From contig CAWDLW010000004.1 of NCBI GenBank assembly GCA_963803145.1, positions 1-49,658 of the forward strand: DNA of 49,658 bases, read 5' to 3'. Positions 38,304 through 49,658 of this stretch are shown here, one piece after another (the stretch's first letter is position 1; every line of letters starts with the position of its first letter). The stretch is from Methanotrichaceae archaeon. Lineage in GTDB: Archaea; Halobacteriota; Methanosarcinia; Methanotrichales; Methanotrichaceae. The notes beneath the pieces are model-generated. The model saw only the letters and a list, made by a program, of their open reading frames with translations. It was not told the DNA's origin and made no database searches. Made by a program: the position numbers and the translations under genes.

Positions 38304-38656
38304 GGTTACACCGCTGATATTATTATCGTCAATTGACTTAAATGTATCCGTCATATATTGAATAAGTTCATCTACGGCCAAATTTTATGCGAGCAATGGC
38401 TAAGAAAAGAGCGACTGCCCTAATTCCGATACATCTCTTCTTTACTTTGCCACCCCAGCTTCAGTAGCCATGCGCCACTGGCAATGGAACCTAACGATAG
38501 TATATAGCCAATACTTTTCTAGTGTTTTACGCTCATCGATAATTATACATGCTAAGAAGTGAAGATAATAACCTACCACGCTAAAAGGAATACGCAAATA
38601 TGCACAAAGACAGCAGATATATAAATCAAAATATAAATATTAATACCCCAAAAACT

Positions 38657-39649
38657 ATGCGTGCCATGGTTTTAGAGCGGCCAACCGAGCCATTACGGCT
38701 TTTGGAGCTTCCTGTCCCTCGCCCGGATCCTGAGCAGATCCTGATCAATGTACATGCATGCGGAGTTTGCCGAACGGATCTTCACATAGTTGATGGCGAG
38801 CTGAAAAGTCCAAAGCTTCCGCTGATTCCAGGCCATGAGATCGTTGGAACTGTAGTTCAGGTCGGTGAAAAAGCCAGCCGTTTTCATCCGGGCGACAGAG
38901 TCGGCGTTCCATGGCTTGGATATACCGATGGCACATGCCGCTACTGCAGATCAGGCCGCGAGAACCTTTGCGATAATCCAAAGTTCACAGGCTATACATT
39001 GGACGGCGGGTATGCAGAATACACCGTGGCAGATCAAAGATACTGCTTTCCCATCCCCGAAGGCTATAACGATCTGGAGGCCGCCCCTCTTTTATGCGCA
39101 GGCCTGATAGGCTACAGATCCTACCGAGTAGCGGTAAATGAAGGAAACGTCGAGCGCCTTGGCATCTACGGCTTTGGGGCAGCAGCACATATCATCACCC
39201 AGGTGGCCATGCATAAAGGTATAGAGGTATATGCCTTCACTCGGCCTGGAGATACGAAGGGACAGGAGTTCGCACGCCATATGGGTGCTATTTGGTCAGG
39301 CGGATCGAATGAGAATCCTCCTCAATCATTGGATGCAGCGATCATCTTCGCGCCTGCAGGTCCCTTGGTCTCGGCAGCCCTTAAAGTGATGGCAAAAGGT
39401 GGCGTTGTTGTCTGCGGAGGAATCCACATGAGCGATATTCCATCATTTCCCTATGTGATCCTCTGGGAGGAAAGGGTAGTAAGATCAGTTGCAAATCTGA
39501 CTCGTCTGGATGGAGAGGAGTTTCTTAAGCTGGCCCCAAAGGTGCCTGTGAAAACCCAGGTGACTCCGTTTCCTCTGGAAGAGGCGAATCAGGCGCTTGA
39601 GAGTCTGAGAGAAGGAAAAATAGAAGGAGCCGCTGTTCTTTATACATAG
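38657..39649 (+). CDS. Zinc-dependent alcohol dehydrogenase family protein (MDR)
   Basis: CGVCRTDLH, PGHEIVG, CRYC..ENLC and GIYGFGAAAH. ATG at 38657 preferred. Confidence 0.92.
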   Translation: MRAMVLERPTEPLRLLELPVPRPDPEQILINVHACGVCRTDLHIVDGELKSPKLPLIPGHEIVGTVVQVGEKASRFHPGDRVGVPWLGYTDGTCRYCRSGRENLCDNPKFTGYTLDGGYAEYTVADQRYCFPIPEGYNDLEAAPLLCAGLIGYRSYRVAVNEGNVERLGIYGFGAAAHIITQVAMHKGIEVYAFTRPGDTKGQEFARHMGAIWSGGSNENPPQSLDAAIIFAPAGPLVSAALKVMAKGGVVVCGGIHMSDIPSFPYVILWEERVVRSVANLTRLDGEEFLKLAPKVPVKTQVTPFPLEEANQALESLREGKIEGAAVLYT

Positions 39650-39671
39650 TGGCAGTTTGAAATAAGCAGTT

Positions 39672-40370
39672 TCAACCTAGCTGGAATAGCCTTGGAGATA
39701 TGAGCAGGGCTATTAGGAGAATTACAGCGCCCGAAATTAGCGCGGCAGCAGGCATATACAGGTCCGATGCACCCCACGAAAATAGCAGTGTATTCGATAG
39801 CTGCCAGAAAGGTGAGATAGCCCTGGCCAAGACAATTGAACCAGTTCCTGGGAGGATGCCGGAAAGGCCGGCAACTGCAATAACTGCCAAGAATGCATAC
39901 AGGTGTACTTCTCCGGATGAGCGAGAAATAAGTGCCACAACGGTTCCGAGGGCACTTGCTGATACCAATGCGGCTACATAGCTAAGAATAACCCAGGATA
40001 TAGAAATCATAGAAACTGTGCGGGATTGGCCTGCGAAAAATATTAAGGCAAGAGGCAGGGCCAGCTGAATGCCCATAAATATGGATCTTCCCAGAATATA
40101 GCTGGACACAACAACTGCAGGATGAAGCGGGAGCACAGCCAGTCTTTCCAGCATCTTTGAATCTCTTAGACCTACAATGCCGATGGATGATCCGAAGATG
40201 CCGATAAATATCACTGCCAGTGCCATGCCGCCGGACCTCATAGCAGGTGGAACCCAGGCCAAGGCCAATGGGCCTACAAGGATCATAGGAAGCAATAGCT
40301 TTGTTATCAGAGATCTTCTGCTCTTGCACTCCTCAATAATCTCCTCCTGCCATAGAGCGTTAGGCAGCAT
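39672..40370 (-). CDS. ABC-2 type exporter permease
   Basis: About 6 TM helices and LERLAVLPL. ATG at 40370 overlaps the end of the ATPase gene. Confidence 0.8.
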   Translation of the reverse strand: MLPNALWQEEIIEECKSRRSLITKLLLPMILVGPLALAWVPPAMRSGGMALAVIFIGIFGSSIGIVGLRDSKMLERLAVLPLHPAVVVSSYILGRSIFMGIQLALPLALIFFAGQSRTVSMISISWVILSYVAALVSASALGTVVALISRSSGEVHLYAFLAVIAVAGLSGILPGTGSIVLARAISPFWQLSNTLLFSWGASDLYMPAAALISGAVILLIALLISPRLFQLG

Positions 40371-41283
40371 CGATGTCCTCCCCGGCAAACTTCAGGAATG
40401 CATCTCCAAGATTGGGCTCCTTTACCTCGATCTTCTGAATCACTCCCCCAAGCGTTGTTACCTCTTTCACTACTGACGATAGTGATTCATGATTTGAGGC
40501 CGCAAGTATCCTTAACTCATCACCATTCGCTTCTATCTTCTCTATTCCTCTGATTCCTTTTATGGATTCTATGGATATGGGCGTAGCCAGCTTCAGTTCG
40601 ATCCTGGTCAGAGCATTGAGGGATGCCACTAGATGATCCGGCTGATCTAAGGCAATAATATGCCCATTTTTTAGGAGGGCGACTCTGCTGGCCAGAAGCT
40701 CGGCCTCGCTTACATCGTTGGTAGACAATATTATTGCTATGCCCTTCTCTGCTAGCTGCCGAAGATGAGAATAAATAGCCAAACGGGATGTATAATCCAG
40801 TCCCATTGAGGGCTCATCCATCAGAAGCAGATCGGGCTCATGTACAAGTGCCTCTATAAGCGACAGCTTGCGCCTCATGCCGTAGGAATAGGCTGTAACA
40901 GCTTCATCGCGTCTTTCAGAAAGTCCTATCCATTTGAAGAGGCTATCAAGCCTTGAAGCCGCCACATTATTGGGAAGGCCGTAAGATCGGGCAAACATCC
41001 AGGCATTCTCGTATCCAGTGAGCTTATCCCAGTGGGCTGTATGGTCGAACATGATCCCAACATGCTTCAGGATTTCTGGACTGCTTTTCAAGCCGAAGAG
41101 CAATGCTTCACCTGAATCAGGCTTGAGCAAAGTCGCCATTATCCGTAGAAGCGTTGATTTTCCACAGCCATTGGATCCCAGGAGGACAAATATCTCTCCT
41201 TTATAGACTTCAAGGTCTATGCCATCGAGGACTCTATTTTTACCATAAGATTTTGAGATGCCCTGCAGGGATAGGATCTGCAA
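40360..41283 (-). CDS. ABC exporter ATP-binding subunit
   Basis: GSNGCGKS, YSYGM, LLMDEP and C-terminal EPNLGDAF. Confidence 0.93.
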   Translation of the reverse strand: MQILSLQGISKSYGKNRVLDGIDLEVYKGEIFVLLGSNGCGKSTLLRIMATLLKPDSGEALLFGLKSSPEILKHVGIMFDHTAHWDKLTGYENAWMFARSYGLPNNVAASRLDSLFKWIGLSERRDEAVTAYSYGMRRKLSLIEALVHEPDLLLMDEPSMGLDYTSRLAIYSHLRQLAEKGIAIILSTNDVSEAELLASRVALLKNGHIIALDQPDHLVASLNALTRIELKLATPISIESIKGIRGIEKIEANGDELRILAASNHESLSSVVKEVTTLGGVIQKIEVKEPNLGDAFLKFAGEDIDAA

Positions 41284-41285
41284 TC

Positions 41286-42560
41286 TCAGCGCACCTCCAG
41301 CCTGGTTCGTTCAGTCACTCTTACAGGACCGGCAGGAACGGTCTCATCGACCGTATAGATCAATATACTTTCACCTATATTGATTATCTTTCCTTGAATC
41401 TTGCCTCTAAGCATATGCCTGTGAAAATCCGGAGCAAATCTTTTTGTCTTATGCATTACCACCACCTCGGCGTCAAGCGGCTCAACTCCTTTTTTTGCAT
41501 AATTGATGTCCAAAGCACCACCGTCCCCTGCTGCAGAAATTTGGCCCGAAATTCTGTCTGGATTGTCTGGAGAAGCCCCCGTAGATACAATCAGCACGCT
41601 TGGGAGGTTCGATCGGGCAAGCCTCAAAGCATTTGAACCTATCATTGATTCCTGCTCCTTATGAAGTCCCCAACGACCCAAAACGATAAGAGAAATATCT
41701 TTCTTAGAGACAAAATCCTGAATTTGGGCACATACCTTGCCTGCCAGCACCTCTGCACGGGCCTTTATACCCTCAGCATCAGCCAGGTGTATGCCCTTCT
41801 TCAGCCCGTCGCTGTAAAGCCTCTTCAACCCTTCATCGATTACATCGTCGTGAATCTTCTCTTGGGCTGATAAATCAAAATGCTCCTTAGCCTTCTCAGG
41901 TAATGATTTCGATATTCTTTTAAAAACCATCGAATGGAAGAAGGGATCGTAGACTGAAACCGCTTCGATCTGGGCATTGAAGGCTTTAGCTATCTCTATA
42001 GCCCGCATCATGGCATAATAGCTATCAACGCTGCCATCTATGCCAACGAGAATAGATTTGCCGGCAAAGCTCCAGGGACTACGCATCAGTAAAACATCCA
42101 TTCCCTGAGAATAAAGGAGAACGCGTTCGGCCGTACTTCCCAGGCCCTCAGCTCGTCCCTGCCCTTGAGCACCCATGACGAGAAGATTTGCTTTTCGCTC
42201 TCCAGCAGCCCTGAGGATCTGTATATAATTTCGTCCCTCGGGAGTTGCACATTCATATTCAATTCCTTTATCAATAGCTCCATTAACAAGCGGCTCCAGG
42301 TAGGAGTCCGATATTAGCTGCAAGCCCTCTCCTATTAGACCTTCGTGGGTCCTCCTAAGGTTAACCAGACCTTCACCGCTATAGCCTTCAGGGAGTCCTG
42401 GCTCCATATCGCCAAACCGGGTACGATGAAGGCTGGCTGCATAAGCATGGCAGCCTATCAGATGAACGCTGCTTCCTTTTTCCGCCAGTGAAAGAGCTGC
42501 GTCTTTAGCAAGATCAGAGTGTATTGATCCGTCAAGAGCCACAAAAATTTGCTTGTACAA
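41286..42560 (-). CDS. Tandem universal stress protein with a C-terminal CDC48-domain-2-like extension
   Basis: Two Usp domains (IFVALDGS..LVMGAQG; ILVGIDGS..IVLGRWG) and C-terminal YTVDETVPAGPVRVTERT; aaggag RBS. Confidence 0.85.
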   Translation of the reverse strand: MYKQIFVALDGSIHSDLAKDAALSLAEKGSSVHLIGCHAYAASLHRTRFGDMEPGLPEGYSGEGLVNLRRTHEGLIGEGLQLISDSYLEPLVNGAIDKGIEYECATPEGRNYIQILRAAGERKANLLVMGAQGQGRAEGLGSTAERVLLYSQGMDVLLMRSPWSFAGKSILVGIDGSVDSYYAMMRAIEIAKAFNAQIEAVSVYDPFFHSMVFKRISKSLPEKAKEHFDLSAQEKIHDDVIDEGLKRLYSDGLKKGIHLADAEGIKARAEVLAGKVCAQIQDFVSKKDISLIVLGRWGLHKEQESMIGSNALRLARSNLPSVLIVSTGASPDNPDRISGQISAAGDGGALDINYAKKGVEPLDAEVVVMHKTKRFAPDFHRHMLRGKIQGKIINIGESILIYTVDETVPAGPVRVTERTRLEVR

Positions 42561-42617
42561 CTTTATCTCCTTTCGTCTCGAATATATTATAGCATTAGTT
42601 TGATAGCAACTGGACAG

Positions 42618-44213
42618 CTATTCCTCCTCTGGTTCCTCGTGGTGCTTCACAGTTACCTCTGCAGTCACCTTCGACACATACCAGAAGACCGCCAGTAAGA
42701 AGGCAAGAAGTATCCCCCATACTATGAAGATGCTTCCCAAAGATATTGGTGTAGGATCATTCATTCCTCCCGGCACAGGTATAATCTTCCAAATGGTCCA
42801 AGGGGCTCTGGCCGATTCCCTGACAAACCCCATAGTCATCACAATCCACATTCCTAGAACCCCTGCGAAGATGCCGGAGATACGAGAACTCCTGTGAAGG
42901 TTGCCCCAATCCTGCTCTTTGGCAACGCCCAGAGTAAAGACATCTATTATGACCACGATAATGCTTACTACGGATAATACGGCGAGGGCTATGTATTTGT
43001 AAATCATCTTGCCTAATGGATTGATCCAGGCTGTGGGATCATCCCTGAACGCGGCACCAAGCCAACCCGGGTTTACCAATATAAAGGCTGAGATCGCTGA
43101 AACTGCCAGTAAGGCCTTAAGTGTAAGGCTTATGTTCTTAGTTTCGATCCGATCCAATATTGCCCCCCTGCGGTCGATAAAATAAACTACTGAGGTCATT
43201 ATGAGGATTGAAAGCAGCGCCGCCATCCATAGCATCTCCCAGGCCCTAGGACCATGCATTATCATCAGGAAGGCCGTGGGACTGGCACCTATTATCTGCC
43301 TCATGAAGAACACACCTAGGATGGGCTGAACTGCGAGTCCTGCCAGGCCCCAGGCCATGCCGTAAGATCCCGACCAGTCCCAATACTTCTGAGCATTTGG
43401 ACTGCCCTTCTTATCCTGATAGTGGAACATGGATAATACGGCTATAAGGAAGCCGAAGTAGGATATGGCCGCTGCCAGACTGTGGAACTGGAGAGCCCAT
43501 AGGGTTGGGTTGAACCACCATGAGAGTAGTGTTCTATAGTCCATTGTCAGAACGCCAATGTAGCCCCATGTAATCTCAGTATTATTAGGCGTCAACATTC
43601 CTGATCCCATCATCTGTATCATTAAAGCCTGGAAGAAGGATGCGATGGCATAACCGAGGCCTATGAATAAGTGCGATGAGGGTCTCATGCTCTTCCATGT
43701 GTAGAAATATAGCCAAAGGAAGAAAATTTGAGCGCTCCATAGTAGAAGCGTTGCGAAAATGGGCCACCAATAGATATGAAAGATATTAAGCATGAAGACA
43801 GGATAAAGTGAGTAAATGAAAAGTAGTGCTGACGCACCAAAGGTAGCACCGACTGAGAATAGTATAACGCTGAAGAAGGCCATGGATTTGGCCAGATTTC
43901 TATAGCGCTCTCTTCTGGATCTCAGGAAAAGGAACTCAGTTATCACAATTATCCAGGACCCGCCCAGCGCTAGGTTCGCCAGTTGGATGTGGCCTGTTAG
44001 GGTTATAGCCATGAATATGGATCTTCCTTGGCTTCCCAAATCTACAGTTTGAAGGGGCAGCTGATTTTCTTGCAATGGCGGTTTTACCGCGTCAAGATCG
44101 CCCGCACTGATGGCAGTTGAAGATATAAACGCTCCCTGTTGTGGAGCGATATACAGGATCAGCATCAGGAAGAAGGCCACCAGCAATAGTACTAAGGCTG
44201 CCAGCTTTATCAT
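42618..44213 (-). CDS. Cytochrome bd superfamily subunit I-like protein, paralog 2 (CydA'-like)
   Basis: GHIQLAN, FHSL, GKM and MGFVRESARAPW; proton-channel Glu residues replaced. ATG at 44213. Confidence 0.8.
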   Translation of the reverse strand: MIKLAALVLLLVAFFLMLILYIAPQQGAFISSTAISAGDLDAVKPPLQENQLPLQTVDLGSQGRSIFMAITLTGHIQLANLALGGSWIIVITEFLFLRSRRERYRNLAKSMAFFSVILFSVGATFGASALLFIYSLYPVFMLNIFHIYWWPIFATLLLWSAQIFFLWLYFYTWKSMRPSSHLFIGLGYAIASFFQALMIQMMGSGMLTPNNTEITWGYIGVLTMDYRTLLSWWFNPTLWALQFHSLAAAISYFGFLIAVLSMFHYQDKKGSPNAQKYWDWSGSYGMAWGLAGLAVQPILGVFFMRQIIGASPTAFLMIMHGPRAWEMLWMAALLSILIMTSVVYFIDRRGAILDRIETKNISLTLKALLAVSAISAFILVNPGWLGAAFRDDPTAWINPLGKMIYKYIALAVLSVVSIIVVIIDVFTLGVAKEQDWGNLHRSSRISGIFAGVLGMWIVMTMGFVRESARAPWTIWKIIPVPGGMNDPTPISLGSIFIVWGILLAFLLAVFWYVSKVTAEVTVKHHEEPEEE

Positions 44214-44374
44214 ATGGCCCATTCCCTCTCTACATGAGCATTGATTATGAGACCACTATCCTTTGGAGTGATTGACAATGCGTGAAACCCCTTATGAACA
44301 GAGATGTCATCTCTAGCGCTGCTATCCGCAGTATATTCTTCCGCCTCATTAAATGTCAATCTCGAATCGCACAT
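44210..44374 (-). CDS. 54-aa soluble protein between the two CydA-like genes
   Basis: gaggtg RBS 7 nt before ATG at 44374; its TGA overlaps the next ATG (ATGA at 44210-44213). Confidence 0.55.
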   Translation of the reverse strand: MCDSRLTFNEAEEYTADSSARDDISVHKGFHALSITPKDSGLIINAHVEREWAI

Positions 44375-44385
44375 CGAGTGACACC

Positions 44386-45990
44386 TCAATCCTTCCATGC
44401 TTGAGCGGCTGGTTCAAGCACATCGACATCTTCAGGATGCTCTGCGGTTACTTTGGAGACGAACCAGAACACTGTAATCGAGAAACCTAGCAGGCCAAAC
44501 CAGATCAGGAATATAGCCCATACGGATATCGGCGTCGGGTAATCAGTCCCTCCAGGCACGGGTACAATCTGAAAGATAGTCCAGGGGGATCTGGCCGATT
44601 CCCTCACGAATCCCATGACTATGATTACCCACATAGCCAGGATGGCCGAAATGATGGCAGCCGCCCTGGAAGATTTGGAGATGTGTCCCCAATCAGGCTC
44701 ATCGAGGCTCCCAAGTATGAAAACCGCAGATCCCACGACCAATGATGCTATTATTGTTATTGTAAATAGGGCTATGTACTTATAGACCATTGCGCCAGCT
44801 GGGTTGGCCACTGCACTCGGACTATTTACGAAGAGTGTCCCAAACCAAGCAGGGTTCGCGTTGATGAACCAAGCCAAGGCGGCAAAGGCTAGGAGTATCT
44901 TCCACATTGGGTAGATGTTGAAAGTCCTTTGTTTAGAGAGTGTCCCTTTATGGCGATCTATGAAGTATATAAGCGAGACTATGAGCAGCGTTGAGAGAAG
45001 CACTACCATCCATAGCATCTCCCAGGCCCTCGGGCCGTGCATCATGTAGTTGAACGCCGCTGGTTGGTTGAGATTTATTTGCGTCATGTACATGAGCCCG
45101 AACCCGGGCTGAAACGCGAGGCCCAGCAGCCCAAAGGCCATGCCGTATGTGGCTACCCAGTCCCAATAAGCCCTGGAGGCTTGATCCTTTCTATCCAGAT
45201 AATGGAACATGGCCAGTGCAGCTATTATGTAACCATAGACAGATACCGCTCCAGCCAGCCTGTGGAATGTGAGGAACCAGACGGTTGAGTTGCTCCACCA
45301 GGCTATGAGTGTGTACCATGCCATTGTGAGGATTCCCGAATATCCCCATACTATGGTACTGTCCCCTGTGGTCAGCATGCCAGCTGCCAGGGTATCTATC
45401 ATCAACATCTGCAGGAAAACATCAACAGCGAGAGCCCAGCCAAGGAACTGATGCCACCCATCACTGATCCTATCCCATGTGTACCAGTAAGAGTAAAGGA
45501 AGAATATTTCACCTGCGAAGGTAAGGGCCTCGATAAATAGAGGCCACCAGTAGATATGGAATATGTTTTGGGTAAAGACCGGAAAGAGGCCTGCGAAGAA
45601 GAGCATTCCTCCGAGAGCCCATGTAGCCCCTACGCTGAAGAATATGACGTTGAAAAGCGTCTGGGATCTGGCGAGTCTCCTAAATCGCTTCTTTCCTGAT
45701 CTGAGGTAAAGGTATTCGGTGAGAGGAATGATCCATGCTCCTCCGAGCTGCAGATTGGCGAGGAGAATGTGGCCAAGCATTGCAACGGCGATGAAGATCG
45801 ACCTGCCCTGTCCGCCCAAATCTACCTCCTGGATGGGCACATTCTCTTCGAGCTGCGGGGGTACCCCTTGAAGGTTAGATGTTTGCAGTTCCGTAGAAGA
45901 TATCAGCCCACCCTGCTGCGGCACTATGTAGAGCACTAACACCAAGAACATGACAGCAAAGGCAGCTAGCAGAACTGTAAGCTTGATCAC
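44386..45990 (-). CDS. cydA: Cytochrome bd superfamily subunit I-like protein, paralog 1 (CydA-like)
   Basis: GHILLAN, IEALTFAGE, FHRL, GAM and MGFVRESARSPW. GTG at 45990 (VIKL) matches the paralog's MIKL start. Confidence 0.82.
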   Translation of the reverse strand: MIKLTVLLAAFAVMFLVLVLYIVPQQGGLISSTELQTSNLQGVPPQLEENVPIQEVDLGGQGRSIFIAVAMLGHILLANLQLGGAWIIPLTEYLYLRSGKKRFRRLARSQTLFNVIFFSVGATWALGGMLFFAGLFPVFTQNIFHIYWWPLFIEALTFAGEIFFLYSYWYTWDRISDGWHQFLGWALAVDVFLQMLMIDTLAAGMLTTGDSTIVWGYSGILTMAWYTLIAWWSNSTVWFLTFHRLAGAVSVYGYIIAALAMFHYLDRKDQASRAYWDWVATYGMAFGLLGLAFQPGFGLMYMTQINLNQPAAFNYMMHGPRAWEMLWMVVLLSTLLIVSLIYFIDRHKGTLSKQRTFNIYPMWKILLAFAALAWFINANPAWFGTLFVNSPSAVANPAGAMVYKYIALFTITIIASLVVGSAVFILGSLDEPDWGHISKSSRAAAIISAILAMWVIIVMGFVRESARSPWTIFQIVPVPGGTDYPTPISVWAIFLIWFGLLGFSITVFWFVSKVTAEHPEDVDVLEPAAQAWKD

Positions 45991-46154
45991 CGTTTCATAT
46001 CCCGAAAATCCATTTACTATTAGCAATATTATGGGCAGTAAGTCATTATAAATTTTATGGTAACCTCTAACCAAACCAATATGCCAAAAATGAATGGACT
46101 CAATAAATTCTAAGGACGATTCATTCAGAATTCTCAGGTTTAGAATTTTAGAGT

Positions 46155-46886
46155 CTATTGTACCATAAACTGACCATTCATCTGAGTTGGGTGGACATCG
46201 CACTGGAAATAGTATGTGCCCGGCTTGCCTGGAGCGGTGAATGTATATGTGGTCTTAGCGGGGCCGGTCACTATCTGCCCCTTGAATATAGCGTTTGTGG
46301 CTGCGGATGATTGATAGACTGCAAAGTTATGGGGCACGCCGCTGTCCTGATTATTGAAGTTGATAGTTACCTGAGCATCAGCGGGCACAGTGATCTTGCT
46401 GGTGTTGAAGGCTATGTTCTTGGCCACAAGTCCTATGGTTATCTTTTGTGTCTGAGTTGTTTTATTGGCTTGAGCGGTCTTGTTGGCCAGCGCAGTAGAC
46501 GCAGGCAGCTCAGTAACCTTGGGCAGAGTGCCGTTTGCATTGGCAACAATTACCTGCCCCTGCATGGATGGTTTCTCTTTAGAATGATACCTGTACGCTC
46601 CGGGCTGCAGGAAGATGTAATCATACTCGTAACCATTGGGGTAAATCTCTCCAGAGTCGAATGAGCTATCGTCAGCAACTACATCAATGGGGTTCATATC
46701 GTGGTTGGCCCATGTAACAGTCGTATTAAGGGGGACTGTAAGGTTGTCTGGGTTGAACGTACCATTCTTTATATCTATCAGCTTGCCTGGAGGCAATCCC
46801 TGGCTCGAAGGTGCGCTTGCCTGCGTACAAGTCGATAATCCTAGAATCAATGCCAAAAGAAGGAGGATCTTGAAGAATCCGTTCAA
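46155..46886 (-). CDS. Exported two-domain cupredoxin (blue copper protein)
   Basis: Signal peptide. Domain 2 has PHNF...CDVHPTQM (type-1 Cu ligands); domain 1 lacks the Cys. gaggtgg RBS before TTG at 46886. Confidence 0.88.
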   Translation of the reverse strand: MNGFFKILLLLALILGLSTCTQASAPSSQGLPPGKLIDIKNGTFNPDNLTVPLNTTVTWANHDMNPIDVVADDSSFDSGEIYPNGYEYDYIFLQPGAYRYHSKEKPSMQGQVIVANANGTLPKVTELPASTALANKTAQANKTTQTQKITIGLVAKNIAFNTSKITVPADAQVTINFNNQDSGVPHNFAVYQSSAATNAIFKGQIVTGPAKTTYTFTAPGKPGTYYFQCDVHPTQMNGQFMVQ

Positions 46887-46960
46887 TCCAACCACCTCTA
46901 AATATTTCTATACTCTATAGTATTAAATTTAACTCGCCGGAGTGGAGAGGACGGAGCGGG

Positions 46961-46987
46961 AAGTCCCCGGCAAATTTCCGGGGACTT
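46961..46987. repeat. GC-rich perfect hairpin
   Basis: aagtccccgg-caaattt-ccggggactt. Confidence 0.8.
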
Positions 46988-47015
46988 TATTTGCCTGTAT
47001 TTTAGGGCATGTATT

Positions 47016-47507
47016 TTAGGTGCTAAAACCACTCCACCTGCCGCTGCCTATTGATGCTTCTGACGTGGGTTGATGCAGTGTACTGGCTCCTTTTGCATGC
47101 TGGAATCTCAGGCCCATCTCTTGAAGCTCAGCGTTGTCTATAATGCTTTTGGCGATATCAAATATAGGGCCTTCTTCCTCCCGGATATGGCTTAAAGATA
47201 TGTCCCTGAAGACCTGCAGCTTAGCTACCCACCATGGATCATCCTTTGGCGTTAATGAGAGATCATCCATTGAGATTCTGGCGATGTTGTGCGCCTCAAT
47301 GGATTTCATCATAGCCTCCGGAGCCTGCTGATTAATCGCAAGATAAAATACATCCTCTTCGGCCCTCATATGATCCAGATTATCCTTCATCACGGCATTG
47401 AATTTATCTTCTCTGGAGCCATCGGCATTCTTCTCGAGCTGGGCAATGCCGTCCAGCAATTTCTGATGATCCGATTTAATTATCCATAGTTCTCTATTGA
47501 TTATCAA
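47016..47507 (-). CDS. Hemerythrin-domain protein
   Basis: DH, HMRAEE, AH and HIREEE. Confidence 0.85.
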   Translation of the reverse strand: MIINRELWIIKSDHQKLLDGIAQLEKNADGSREDKFNAVMKDNLDHMRAEEDVFYLAINQQAPEAMMKSIEAHNIARISMDDLSLTPKDDPWWVAKLQVFRDISLSHIREEEGPIFDIAKSIIDNAELQEMGLRFQHAKGASTLHQPTSEASIGSGRWSGFST

Positions 47508-47545
47508 TCGTAGTTAGGAAGATAAAAATAAGGAGGCTATTTGTC

Positions 47546-48469
47546 TCATAGCCCCCCGTTCGGCATATCGAGAAAATCTTCTACTATCTTTGAAAACTCA
47601 TCAGGGAACTGATAAATCAGGCCATGTCCGGCTCCTTCAAACCTGATTAACCAGGACCCCGGTATTTGCTTCGCCAGTATCAGTGAGTTCTCTGGAGGCG
47701 CAATCTTATCTTCAGTCCCTACTATTACGAGCGTAGGCCTGCTTATATTTGTAAGCCGATCGTATGTTCCCGCCCAATATCCAATGGCTGCATTTTGCCT
47801 AGCTATGTTCTCTGGAGATGTAGTCTCCTTTGGAATTGGGAATTGCCTATAGAAATCTGGATGACTTTTAAGCCATTCCTCAGGGAATAGGAGACTAAAA
47901 AGCCTCATTCCTCTTTCGCTCGGGCTTCCTGTTGTGTTGGTCAGCTCCTGTAGTACTTCTGCAGATGGAGGAATAGCATGAGATCCGCCACAATCGCTTG
48001 CATATAATACTAGCTTGTCCACCTTATCAGGGTGGTTTAAAACAAGCTCCTGGGCTATAAATGAGCCCATGGACCAGCCCAAGATGTGGGCCCTCTTTAT
48101 TCCTAACGCGTCCATTAGCCCAGAGGTATCTTCAGCAAACTGCTCAATGGAGAAGTTGCCAGGTGGTGCGGTGGTGTATCCCATGCCTCTATTATCGAAG
48201 ATGATGACCTTATAGTTTGAGGATAGCTTGCTAAGAAGTTCCGGGGGCCAGAGATCCATAGTTGAGCTGCTGCCTATAATCATTATTAGTGGCTCGCCCT
48301 GGCCAAAGGTTTTGTAAGCAATGTCTATATCCCCCACATGGACTGTCTTAACCTCAATATTTGAAACATTTAGCAGAGGGTAATTATCCGATGTTTTACA
48401 TTTTATAATTCCAATAGGAATTAAGATTGCCAATAGCAAAACGAAGATAGCTATTCCTATATGTTTCAT
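47546..48469 (-). CDS. Exported/membrane-anchored alpha/beta hydrolase
   Basis: N-terminal hydrophobic segment, DNRGMG, GWSMG, GTED and GAGHG. Confidence 0.9.
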   Translation of the reverse strand: MKHIGIAIFVLLLAILIPIGIIKCKTSDNYPLLNVSNIEVKTVHVGDIDIAYKTFGQGEPLIMIIGSSSTMDLWPPELLSKLSSNYKVIIFDNRGMGYTTAPPGNFSIEQFAEDTSGLMDALGIKRAHILGWSMGSFIAQELVLNHPDKVDKLVLYASDCGGSHAIPPSAEVLQELTNTTGSPSERGMRLFSLLFPEEWLKSHPDFYRQFPIPKETTSPENIARQNAAIGYWAGTYDRLTNISRPTLVIVGTEDKIAPPENSLILAKQIPGSWLIRFEGAGHGLIYQFPDEFSKIVEDFLDMPNGGL

Positions 48470-48517
48470 ATTCCCTCCCAATTATTTGGAGCTATGCCGA
48501 CTTTCTATATTTAATTT

Positions 48518-48799
48518 TTACGTTTGACTTAATCCCATCGACCCTAATATACTGCTAATTTCAGGCAAGGCGCCAATGGCTGCAACCTCTATCTGCTTGC
48601 CAATTCGACAACCAGAAGAATAATCGATAACTACTCTGCCGTTTTCTCTTGGAACAGGCGGTGCAAAAGCAGCGAAGTAAAGCCAGTCAGGCATTATGCC
48701 TCTTGGCGAGCATGTGGAAAATCCAAGAAACATGCCGCCCCTATATTTGCTCATCATGGTCTCATCTGCTGTAAGTATTATTGTAGGAGATTTTTCCAT
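48518..48799 (-). pseudogene. N-terminal fragment of an archaeal B12-binding radical SAM protein
   Basis: IILTADETMMSKYRGGMFLGFSTC..P is typical of that family's N-terminus. aggtga RBS. Similarity is lost after about 55 aa and there is no CxxxCxxC. Confidence 0.6.
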
Positions 48800-49658
48800 T
48801 CAGTCACCTTAATCAATGGTCATTCAATGCTGAAGGGGTTCAAGCATATCGTTCATACTTGGATGTTTGGTAATATTACTTTTCTATGTTATTTTAAATA
48901 TTCGCTGAAATACGTTACCAGTAGGCAAATCAGCGTTAAATATACCGCTAAACTAATGGCAATAGTATGCTTCGCTGTATTGAGAATCCTCTGCGATTTA
49001 GGACTGGTATTTGCATAATGGACCATGTGAAAATTTTTCTTATATTTGATCAAAAAGGCTCCAAATAATATTATGAAAACTTAATTCATTCCAAATCGAA
49101 TTGATTTAGTAATATTATATCTACAAATATAAAGGAAGATCCAACAGATATGTGATTAGGTCAATGGAGACCAAGTTCCAAAAATTTTAAATGTCTTCTG
49201 CAGCAAATATATTTGAGCGTATAGCTTAGGTGTTTTAAATGAAATTAAAATTTTGGGCAACTGTGATTGTTGTTGTGATATCCGCATTAATACTTCGCCT
49301 GTTATCCATAATACGAACAAGGTCCGAGCAATATCTGTCTCGGGCCAAGAAATGGATAGGCGGGTTCAGCCTAAGAAATGATCTGAGGTCTAGTCTACGC
49401 ATTTTCAATCGTTAATGGCATCTAGAAGATGCTGAATGTGGGATTACTTTATATATCCCTCATTAATCCTGATATTTCAACCTTGCATTGGAAAGAACTA
49501 TGCTAAAAACCTGGAAGGATGATGCCTTGGTTAATTGGTTAAAGCTTTGCAGCGATGTTCTCGGAGTAATAGCTGTTCAGTTGCTATTTTATTTGCATTT
49601 CTTTTACCGAAAAGAGTTTAATCTTTTTGACTCCATTAAGAATGAGAAAAGATGAAAT

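Follow-up and report, generated by a model that had tools for sequence, protein, structure and literature searches.

The cytochrome bd superfamily includes, besides quinol oxidases such as Escherichia coli cytochrome bd-I, CydAB(X), two non-quinol branches, OR-N and OR-C, from which, to our knowledge, no enzyme has been purified. In bacterial bd-like modules of the OR-N2 type (Nitrospira-type), a CydA-like protein that lacks the Q-loop and is not accompanied by CydB is encoded beside cupredoxins and membrane c-type cytochromes. According to the description of these branches by Murali, Gennis and Hemp (2021 preprint, 10.1101/2021.01.16.426971), the OR-N proteins possess neither a quinol site nor a heme c motif, always retain H19 and are encoded in operons with alternative electron donors; they have 10 (N3-N5) or 14 (N1/N2) transmembrane helices and include very few archaeal representatives. 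The same description covers pairs of OR-N paralogues, in which the 'a' protein contains E99 and E107 whereas the 'b' protein does not, and reports a one-residue deletion between these glutamates for both OR-C and OR-N; the electron donor of the non-quinol branches is posed there as an open question. Also described there is CydAA' (qOR4a/4b) of Caldivirga maquilingensis, a heme-b-only oxygen reductase that keeps the quinol site and oxidizes quinol. Here we analyze a 49,658-nucleotide (nt) stretch of DNA from a Methanotrichaceae archaeon (contig CAWDLW010000004.1 of assembly GCA_963803145.1; hereafter, the window) that encodes a pair of bd-superfamily proteins, CydA1 and CydA2, without CydB or a recognizable quinol site. 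This pair and its relatives are repeatedly linked to copper proteins, propeller proteins, Usp-ABC genes and heme-synthesis genes.

The genes for CydA1 (44386-45990, minus strand; 534 amino acids (aa) when read from a GTG codon) and CydA2 (42618-44222, minus strand; 534 aa, or 531 aa if the protein starts at MIKL) encode proteins that are 51% identical (274 of 534 positions) and match the PF01654 profile with 62 and 71 bits, respectively, above the cutoff of 26.2. An AlphaFold2 model of CydA1, built on a 77-sequence alignment, reached a pLDDT of 92 and a pTM of 0.92, and in a Foldseek search with this model the ten best matches in the Protein Data Bank (PDB) were all CydA chains of solved bd oxidases (E-values of 1e-10 to 3e-8), followed by CydB chains. 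All PDB matches of the CydA-like proteins are to enzymes named as quinol-type bd oxidases. When CydA1 was aligned with E. coli CydA using hhalign, H74 corresponded to H19, E154 and E161 to E99 and E107, H243 to H186, and E464 and R467 to E445 and R448; two methionines, M401 and M459, are invariant in the 77 sequences. CydA2 retains H78, H247, M406, M464, R468, E469 and R472, as judged by alignment with Geobacillus CydA (5doq_A) and by a pairwise map to CydA1, and carries T158 and Q165 where CydA1 has both channel glutamates. A sequence-only reading of this locus held that both proteins keep the heme ligands; the equivalents of H19, H186, E445 and R448 are indeed found in both, but those of E99 and E107 only in CydA1, an asymmetry that the earlier wording concealed. 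Judged by these residues, the pair most likely consists of a catalytic 'a' subunit, CydA1, and a degenerate 'b' subunit, CydA2.

This pattern closely resembles that of the OR-N paralogue pairs: the spacing between E154 and E161 is 7 residues compared to 8 in E. coli CydA, that is, CydA1 has the one-residue deletion, and CydA2 has T158/Q165 in place of the glutamates. The H-E-E-H-E-R signature is complete in 110 of the 129 family members, with 17 varying at the glutamate positions and 2 lacking the first column; the b-type signature is restricted to close kin of the window pair and to the second copies in the genus of genome G299. As in CydAA', the bd-like enzyme is archaeal and comprises two CydA paralogues without CydB; unlike in CydAA', the quinol site is missing. 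With E. coli bd-I (locus L020; 6rko, 6rx4), the window proteins share the CydA fold and, in CydA1, all counterparts of H19, E99, E107, H186, E445 and R448, but they lack CydB and CydX as well as the Lys and Glu of the Q-loop, contain extra helices and show only about 15-17% identity in structural alignments.

The region of the quinol site also differs from that of the canonical enzymes. The columns of K252 and E257 contain A, S or G and M, respectively, in all members of the clade, so that no matching Lys/Glu pair was found, in a region where the alignment is unreliable. The span between the equivalents of H186 and M393 is 163 residues compared to 207 in E. coli. The earlier description of a reduced Q-loop without the quinol-binding Lys and Glu thus holds for the residues, but the loop is not merely short: in the CydA1 model, a helical hairpin (predicted helices 322-346 and 360-378), that is, two extra long helices, appears to stand in its place. 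Altogether, the model contains 12 long helices: nine form the core, two the hairpin, and one is an extra helix at the N-terminus, after which comes a conserved outer loop. Compared to the 10 or 14 helices of OR-N proteins, this is a soft mismatch given that the helix-counting methods differ.

No partner of the canonical kind was detected in the source genome (4.13 Mb in 51 contigs, 99.3% complete and 6.8% contaminated). The cydB profile, PF02322, had no match in it at E-values up to 1, whereas 11 of the 14 control genomes were positive, in agreement with the sequence-only reading that cydB is absent. PF01654 matches in this genome are limited to the window pair and a strain-variant copy on contig C22, and therefore it encodes no canonical CydA. 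C22:18853-30155 is 99.0% identical to window positions 38356-49658 over 11.3 kb, and the overlap stops at both contig ends. We considered the C22 pair as a paralogous second operon and rejected this possibility given the identity and extent of the overlap; C22 is probably a strain-variant contig that reflects strain heterogeneity in the bin (consistent with the 6.8% contamination), and it doubles the apparent gene counts for the bd-like locus. In the same genome, we found no heme-copper oxidase, which leaves the bd-like pair as the sole oxidase candidate, and no bc-type cytochrome b (PF13631); a single small Rieske frame was detected. We accordingly rejected the idea that a bc complex carries electrons from methanophenazine to the cupredoxin. 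No CxxCH motif is present in the eight proteins of the cluster, as noted earlier from the sequence, or in either window CydA and the 11 other clade members checked, which sets them apart from OR-C; among 378 picked open reading frames (ORFs) of the neighborhoods, three contain this motif, and all three encode Usp proteins.

Under these circumstances, the possibility that the pair is an ordinary quinol oxidase, with a CydB that is encoded elsewhere or was missed, is effectively refuted. What speaks for it is the naming: the named ones among the 206 relatives retrieved by an indexed search are all annotated as ubiquinol oxidase subunit I. Against it stand the silent PF02322 profile in a nearly complete genome, the unmatched quinol Lys and Glu together with the replaced Q-loop, and the identity of the nearest outgroups: instead of canonical CydA, their source names include a fusion of bacterial CydA with cytochrome c and a CydA-like protein of Chloroflexota. 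The lack of cydB, of counterparts to K252 and E257 and of a heme c motif, along with the cupredoxin and propeller neighbors described below, supports the assignment of the window pair to CydB-less, quinol-site-less bd-superfamily members of the OR-N kind.

Whereas very few archaeal representatives are reported for OR-N, the clade to which the window pair belongs is archaeal, with members from methanogens, Theionarchaea and Promethearchaeota by source names, and contains two a/b splits. The named relatives come from Methanotrichaceae, Methanoculleus, Methanoregulaceae, Methanobacterium, Theionarchaea and Promethearchaeota, and an exhaustive search of 1.84 billion representatives yielded three full-length clusters (at 50% identity) that are 39-47% identical to the query, followed by a drop to about 30%. 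The distribution of the clade is patchy: it is present in 3 of the 401 genomes of a phylum-wide sample, in which 12 further genomes of the family all lack it, in 7 of the 105 genomes of the order of the window, including all three genomes of its genus in the collection (which is not the largest genus of the family), and in 16 of the 201 genomes and 8 of the 40 genera of the order around G299.

For the analysis of gene neighborhoods, we used 29 distinct loci, that is, the window and 28 others, after removal of L005 and L006, which duplicate L075 and L018; several loci are truncated at contig ends. Two CydA copies are present in 10 of these loci and one in the remaining 19, so a single 'a'-type gene is the rule. 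Accordingly, the double-CydA arrangement, highlighted in the sequence-only reading, exists in the window but is lineage-specific. A FastTree phylogeny was constructed from 36 locus-derived proteins and 5 outgroups, with the interrupted CydA of L007 represented by a 400-aa piece and with the partial second copy of L065 and the locus L074 left out. In this tree, the 'b' copies are sisters to the 'a' copies of the same genus, both in the genus of the window (signature H-T/N-Q) and in that of G299 (H-Y-I/V), and the pairwise identities agree; therefore, a CydB-like partner appears to have evolved twice, by independent a/b duplications within the clade, a conclusion tempered by the fact that the tree was read without support values. 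In L007 (6998-8564), a metagenome-assembled genome of Methanoregulaceae, the CydA-like gene is split into two ORFs, possibly, due to an assembly error or pseudogenization.

Upstream of CydA1, on the same strand, the window encodes a two-domain cupredoxin of 246 aa (46155-46895; PF13473, 82 bits in two stretches; PF00127, 41 bits). The C-terminal domain contains the type-1 copper ligands H189, C232, H235 and M239, which are invariant in all 13 cupredoxins that were aligned, taken from CydA loci and from the C22 island described below, whereas the N-terminal cupredoxin-like domain lacks cysteine and hence the type-1 copper ligand set. The hydrophobic N-terminus is followed by a cysteine, in a lipobox-like arrangement, and the same feature in most of the aligned cupredoxins suggests that they are lipid-anchored. 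To count the neighbors within 6 kb of a CydA gene, we ran six-frame tblastn searches with references trimmed by domain; trimming was applied because the GSDH and PQQ proteins carry fused cupredoxin and DUF4399 domains that caused cross-matches. By this measure, a cupredoxin is encoded at 19 of the 29 loci, and at 13 of these, spread across several families, it immediately precedes the CydA gene in the same orientation. Of the 17 loci that extend for at least 3 kb to either side, 13 contain a cupredoxin, 10 a propeller and 4 neither. Together with the invariant copper ligands, these counts indicate that the association between cupredoxin and CydA pointed out in the sequence-only reading is not due to chance.

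The second recurrent partner is a propeller protein of the pyrroloquinoline quinone (PQQ) type (9 of the 29 loci) or of the GSDH type (7 loci), with one or the other found at 14 loci. The best solved relatives of the PQQ-type propellers are methanol, alcohol and glucose quinoprotein dehydrogenases (E-values of 1e-18 to 1e-13), ahead of BamB, and their PF01011 scores of 144-184 bits come from profile positions 1 to about 340 of 595 only; for the GSDH-like proteins, the matches are soluble PQQ sugar dehydrogenases and the HHIP propeller. In two loci from another genus of the family, L077 and L078, the gene order is PQQ-type propeller, five-domain cupredoxin, CydA and Usp, with the ABC genes next in L078, whereas L077 ends soon after Usp. 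Furthermore, propellers and cupredoxins are fused in single proteins: a PQQ-type propeller with a cupredoxin in L068 (14358-15968) and, with a C-terminal cupredoxin domain, in two proteins of the source genome, on contigs C7 (693 aa; L082:1263-3344, minus strand) and C17 (736 aa; L083:1059-3269, plus strand), and DUF4399, GSDH and cupredoxin domains in L061 (3913-6144). The C7 and C17 proteins are a copper analogue of the quinohemoprotein alcohol dehydrogenases.

On contig C22, the sequence continues beyond the end of the window, with a divergent PQQ-propeller gene about 3.2 kb on and two insertion sequence-type transposase pairs (DDE_3 and HTH). The transposase pairs separate the bd-like cluster from a co-oriented blue-copper island (C22:3185-9837; L081) located about 9-15 kb past position 49658. 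The island encodes, in this order, a 559-aa protein with four cupredoxin domains (three above the Pfam threshold), a 529-aa PQQ-type propeller, three cupredoxins of 155, 255 (with DUF4399) and 196 aa, and a 290-aa secreted-repeat protein (Lipoprotein_15).

Bacteria possess chains in which a quinohemoprotein alcohol dehydrogenase reduces azurin, or methylamine dehydrogenase reduces amicyanin, and the type-1 copper protein then feeds a terminal oxidase. The archaeal loci encode the same three kinds of components, namely, a propeller protein of the dehydrogenase type, a small type-1 copper protein and a putative terminal oxidase. However, the carrier is in some cases fused to the propeller, the oxidase is bd-like rather than heme-copper, and the hosts are strict anaerobes. 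In contrast to the bacterial OR-N2-type modules, the archaeal loci encode no c-type cytochromes, leaving copper and propeller proteins alone on the donor side.

Taken together, these observations give somewhat better than even odds, in our estimate, to the cluster encoding an OR-N-like, non-quinol bd oxidase that is fed at the outer face of the membrane by a tethered type-1 copper protein and scavenges oxygen. CydA1, which keeps the active-site histidine, the two proton-channel glutamates, the b558 histidine and the ExxR motif, would be the catalytic heme subunit, and CydA2, a recent paralogue minus the channel glutamates, would occupy the structural place of CydB, by analogy with the known a/b pairs and CydAA'. 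Synteny and the fusions suggest that electrons enter at the outer face from the tethered copper protein encoded upstream. The quinoprotein dehydrogenase-like propellers, which are linked or fused to the copper proteins in relatives and encoded nearby in the source genome, would be the likeliest reductants of the copper proteins. By comparison with the family, O2 would be reduced to water with cytoplasmic protons delivered via E154 and E161, removing O2 at the surface of a strict anaerobe and, possibly, adding to the membrane potential. The Usp protein and the ABC exporter pair, as well as the Ahb proteins in other lineages, may be accessory, assembly or regulatory parts.

The retention of the E99/E107 pair in CydA1 is consistent with a proton-consuming enzyme, as the terminal reductase proposed from the sequence would be, and, along with the retained active-site ligands, it would fit any other reduction that consumes protons. 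An enzyme of the same architecture might thus act mainly as a nitric oxide (NO) reductase, as a scavenger of peroxide or peroxynitrite, or on another small oxidant instead of O2. Canonical bd oxidases are capable of handling NO, H2O2 and peroxynitrite, and the Usp and hemerythrin proteins of the window would fit a general response to oxidative or nitrosative stress. Nevertheless, we consider this alternative unlikely: no nitrogen-oxide genes were seen in the 29 neighborhoods, and every characterized superfamily member, including CydAA', is an oxygen reductase as far as the account in 10.1101/2021.01.16.426971 extends.

Several observations weigh against an oxidase fed by the cupredoxin, and some of them favor a different arrangement, in which the copper and propeller proteins make up a redox system of their own at the cell surface and only share the genomic island with the oxidase, which would rely on another carrier. 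Cupredoxin domains are common in the order of the window, being present in at least one copy in 64 of the 105 genomes, most of which have no CydA-like gene, and therefore cupredoxins have other partners too. Four of the 17 well-flanked loci (L019, L059, L072 and L008) contain neither a cupredoxin nor a propeller, and in the basal clade (L019, L071 and L080) the CydA gene is accompanied only by the Usp and ABC genes, with the addition of Ahb genes in L019 and L071. In the window itself, a conserved TATA-like block located before CydA1 suggests that the CydA genes may be transcribed apart from the cupredoxin gene. Further, E. coli M393, the second axial ligand of heme b558, aligns with I411 of CydA1 in a weak hhalign match (E = 0.019), the invariant M401 lying 10 residues upstream, and the pqqC profile (TIGR02111) had no match in the source genome, although no control genome matched it either.

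The separate-system arrangement is nonetheless improbable, in our assessment. It leaves unexplained why the cupredoxin gene is located immediately upstream of CydA on the same strand at 13 of the 29 loci across several families, and why a multi-cupredoxin protein is encoded between the propeller and CydA in L077 and L078. Moreover, no gene for another carrier recurs at these loci, there is no CxxCH protein, and the source genome contains no bc-type cytochrome b. We therefore continue to favor the copper-fed oxidase.

Genome-wide counts of cupredoxins point in the same direction. The source genome has 17 cupredoxin-domain matches in 4.1 Mb, and in a search across the order, the seven CydA-positive genomes had 16, 10, 10, 10, 13, 8 and 0 matches, the 16 being those of the source genome, with 4 from the duplicated C22 overlap. 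At least 8 matches were found in six of these seven genomes compared to only two CydA-negative ones (G537 and G544), with the caveat that the compared genomes are related and hence are not independent samples. In the largest genus of the family, many genomes that lack the bd-like gene share a frame of about 450 aa ending in a cupredoxin domain (for example, G576:C24, G596:C97 and G575:C24), and a copper protein of this type is thus widespread in these methanogens. A complex prediction for CydA1 with cupredoxin residues 135-246, run without controls, gave a score of 0.00 and a mark of 0.32 and allows no verdict.

The sequence-only reading also raised the possibility that the cluster is a membrane entry point for extracellular electrons, which would reach methanogenic metabolism by direct interspecies electron transfer (DIET) or cathodic uptake. 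This proposal fares poorly, and we regard it as very improbable. That reading also referred to a genus reported to perform DIET, an assignment that goes beyond the family-level placement of the organism in Methanotrichaceae. The proteins have no quinol or methanophenazine site, there is no bc-type complex in the source genome that would link them to the membrane pool, and the clade is patchily distributed, with only 7 positive genomes among the 105 of the order. In the solved bd oxidases, all hemes are located close to the outer side of the membrane, and electrons have no route from them to the cytoplasm. Support for the idea comes from Methanosarcina barkeri, in which growth in DIET co-cultures, compared to co-cultures with H2 transfer, was accompanied by 2- to 7-fold higher levels of transcripts for cupredoxin, PQQ-domain and bd-type oxidase proteins (Holmes et al. 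2018, PMC6315138), and these same three types of proteins are physically linked in the loci analyzed here. However, as the same report itself points out, the potentials of cupredoxins, +150 to +680 mV, are far above that of methanophenazine, -165 mV.

With respect to the remainder of the cluster, the genes listed in the sequence-only reading, that is, those for the cupredoxin, CydA1, CydA2, tandem Usp, ABC ATPase and ABC permease, with a hemerythrin upstream, were recovered by Pfam and ORF evidence, all co-oriented on the minus strand. The CydA1 ORF extends to 46203 (605 aa); however, an in-frame GTG at 45990 is the most likely start of the protein, because the resulting MIKL beginning and the length of 534 aa match those of CydA2, and alignments begin late in the ORF (at residues 67-78 for the best alignments of the exhaustive search). 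This start leaves a 164-nt spacer after the cupredoxin gene. A non-coding block of about 76 nt (45988-46063, minus strand), with a TATA/BRE-like sequence, AAAATTTATAATGA, is almost identical in the same-genus locus L005, whereas the rest of the spacer is not conserved; this block is probably a separate archaeal promoter for the CydA genes.

The 54-aa ORF that the sequence-only reading placed between CydA1 and CydA2 corresponds to a 62-aa ORF (44210-44398, minus strand) translated from an internal ATG. Neither Pfam nor NCBIfam recognizes this ORF, a tblastn search of six related loci gave nothing better than E = 2.5, and the spacer in which it lies is poorly conserved; we rejected it as a gene, and its listing as a cluster member is probably spurious.

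Downstream of CydA2, the tandem Usp gene (41286-42560, minus strand; PF00582, 100 bits in two stretches) is followed by genes for an ABC ATPase of the DrrA/ABC-2 exporter type (40360-41283, minus strand; PF00005, 100 bits) and a small ABC-2-type permease (39672-40388, minus strand; a weak PF12698 match, E = 0.0023). These three genes overlap, the Usp stop with the ATPase start, and the permease and ATPase genes by 29 nt. The ATPase matches two NCBIfam models, both below cutoff: TIGR01188 (drrA, 232 bits) and TIGR03864 ('PQQ-dependent alcohol dehydrogenase system ABC ATPase', 161 bits). The C-terminal extension of Usp, of about 100 aa (residues 320-424), had no usable match in the protein atlas. 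Within 6 kb of a CydA gene, Usp is encoded at 18 of the 29 loci, and the ABC ATPase and the permease at 13 loci each, the permease orthologues adjoining the ATPase.

The hemerythrin-domain protein directly upstream of the cupredoxin (47016-47507, minus strand; PF01814, 35 bits) has no tblastn match across the six related loci and, lacking conservation in relatives, was rejected as a part of the bd-like system. The cluster is flanked by a zinc-type alcohol dehydrogenase (38600-39649, plus strand) and a secreted or membrane alpha/beta hydrolase (47546-48481, minus strand); L005, from the same genus, likewise has a 349-aa ORF at the position of the alcohol dehydrogenase, past the permease gene and in the opposite orientation. 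No Rfam match was found over 39000-49658 at E-values up to 1.

In other lineages, genes for heme synthesis join the neighborhood. An Ahb-type radical-SAM gene is located within 6 kb of a CydA gene at 14 of the 29 loci; by NCBIfam, these proteins are AhbC/AhbD/NirJ-like, below the equivalog cutoffs, and the small genes next to them encode AhbA and AhbB, the latter scoring above its cutoff. AhbA, AhbB and AhbC/D-like genes, for the conversion of siroheme to heme, adjoin the bd-like gene in L019 (12444-15773), L059 (949-2534), L060 (12863-14466) and L062 (12287-14455), and in L019 the complete Ahb set directly follows CydA-Usp-ABC. These four loci come from the order around G299, where the source names of relatives include Methanoculleus and Methanoregulaceae. 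Lineages of the Methanoculleus and Methanoregulaceae type are usually described as lacking cytochromes.

Two further arrangements were observed next to CydA genes. In L064 (4940-6418) and L072 (4274-5812), loci without a cupredoxin, a pyridine-nucleotide-disulfide oxidoreductase (PF07992 and PF02852) is encoded directly upstream of a single CydA-like gene and may be a different, cytoplasmic redox partner. In the genus of G299, a GSDH-type propeller with a C-terminal fasciclin domain (cell-surface adhesion) is encoded beside the CydA pair in L066 (9666-11918), L070 (9547-11823), L069 (5810-8212) and L068 (1899-4349), directly downstream of the pair in L066 and L070.

The concept of OR-N, with its non-quinol enzymes, a/b pairs and alternative donors, is already published. 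What we did not find in print is a cytochrome-c-free, 12-helix archaeal clade with propeller-cupredoxin fusions, traveling Ahb genes and two a/b duplications. No published description of this clade in methanogens was found, although the subfamily tables of Murali et al. may already contain it; in the text of PMC10654671 and PMC13564446 that we searched, 'cytochrome bd' appears in the reference lists only. A far-reaching extension of the favored reading, doubtful as a whole, is that some methanogens, including orders regarded as cytochrome-free, possess a complete extracytoplasmic O2-respiring chain without quinones or c-type cytochromes. In such a chain, blue-copper 'wires' of one or several domains would carry electrons from quinoprotein-like propeller dehydrogenases at the cell surface to a bd-like oxidase with 12 helices that consumes cytoplasmic protons, for O2 detoxification and energy conservation, with its own siroheme-to-heme pathway and with a CydB-like partner re-evolved twice from CydA.

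For the non-quinol branches of the bd superfamily, the archaeal clade offers a simple test case, with one or two heme subunits, a single tethered type-1 copper protein and no c-type cytochromes; the natural fusions point to the donor chain, which makes the question of the donor directly testable. The two apparently independent 'a'-to-'b' duplications would represent a natural replay of the origin of CydB-like partners from CydA. If the proposed function is correct, strict anaerobes, including methanogens that textbooks class as lacking cytochromes, would possess a membrane heme oxidase along with genes for heme synthesis, which would bear on the survival of methanogens through oxygen pulses in soils, peat and digesters.

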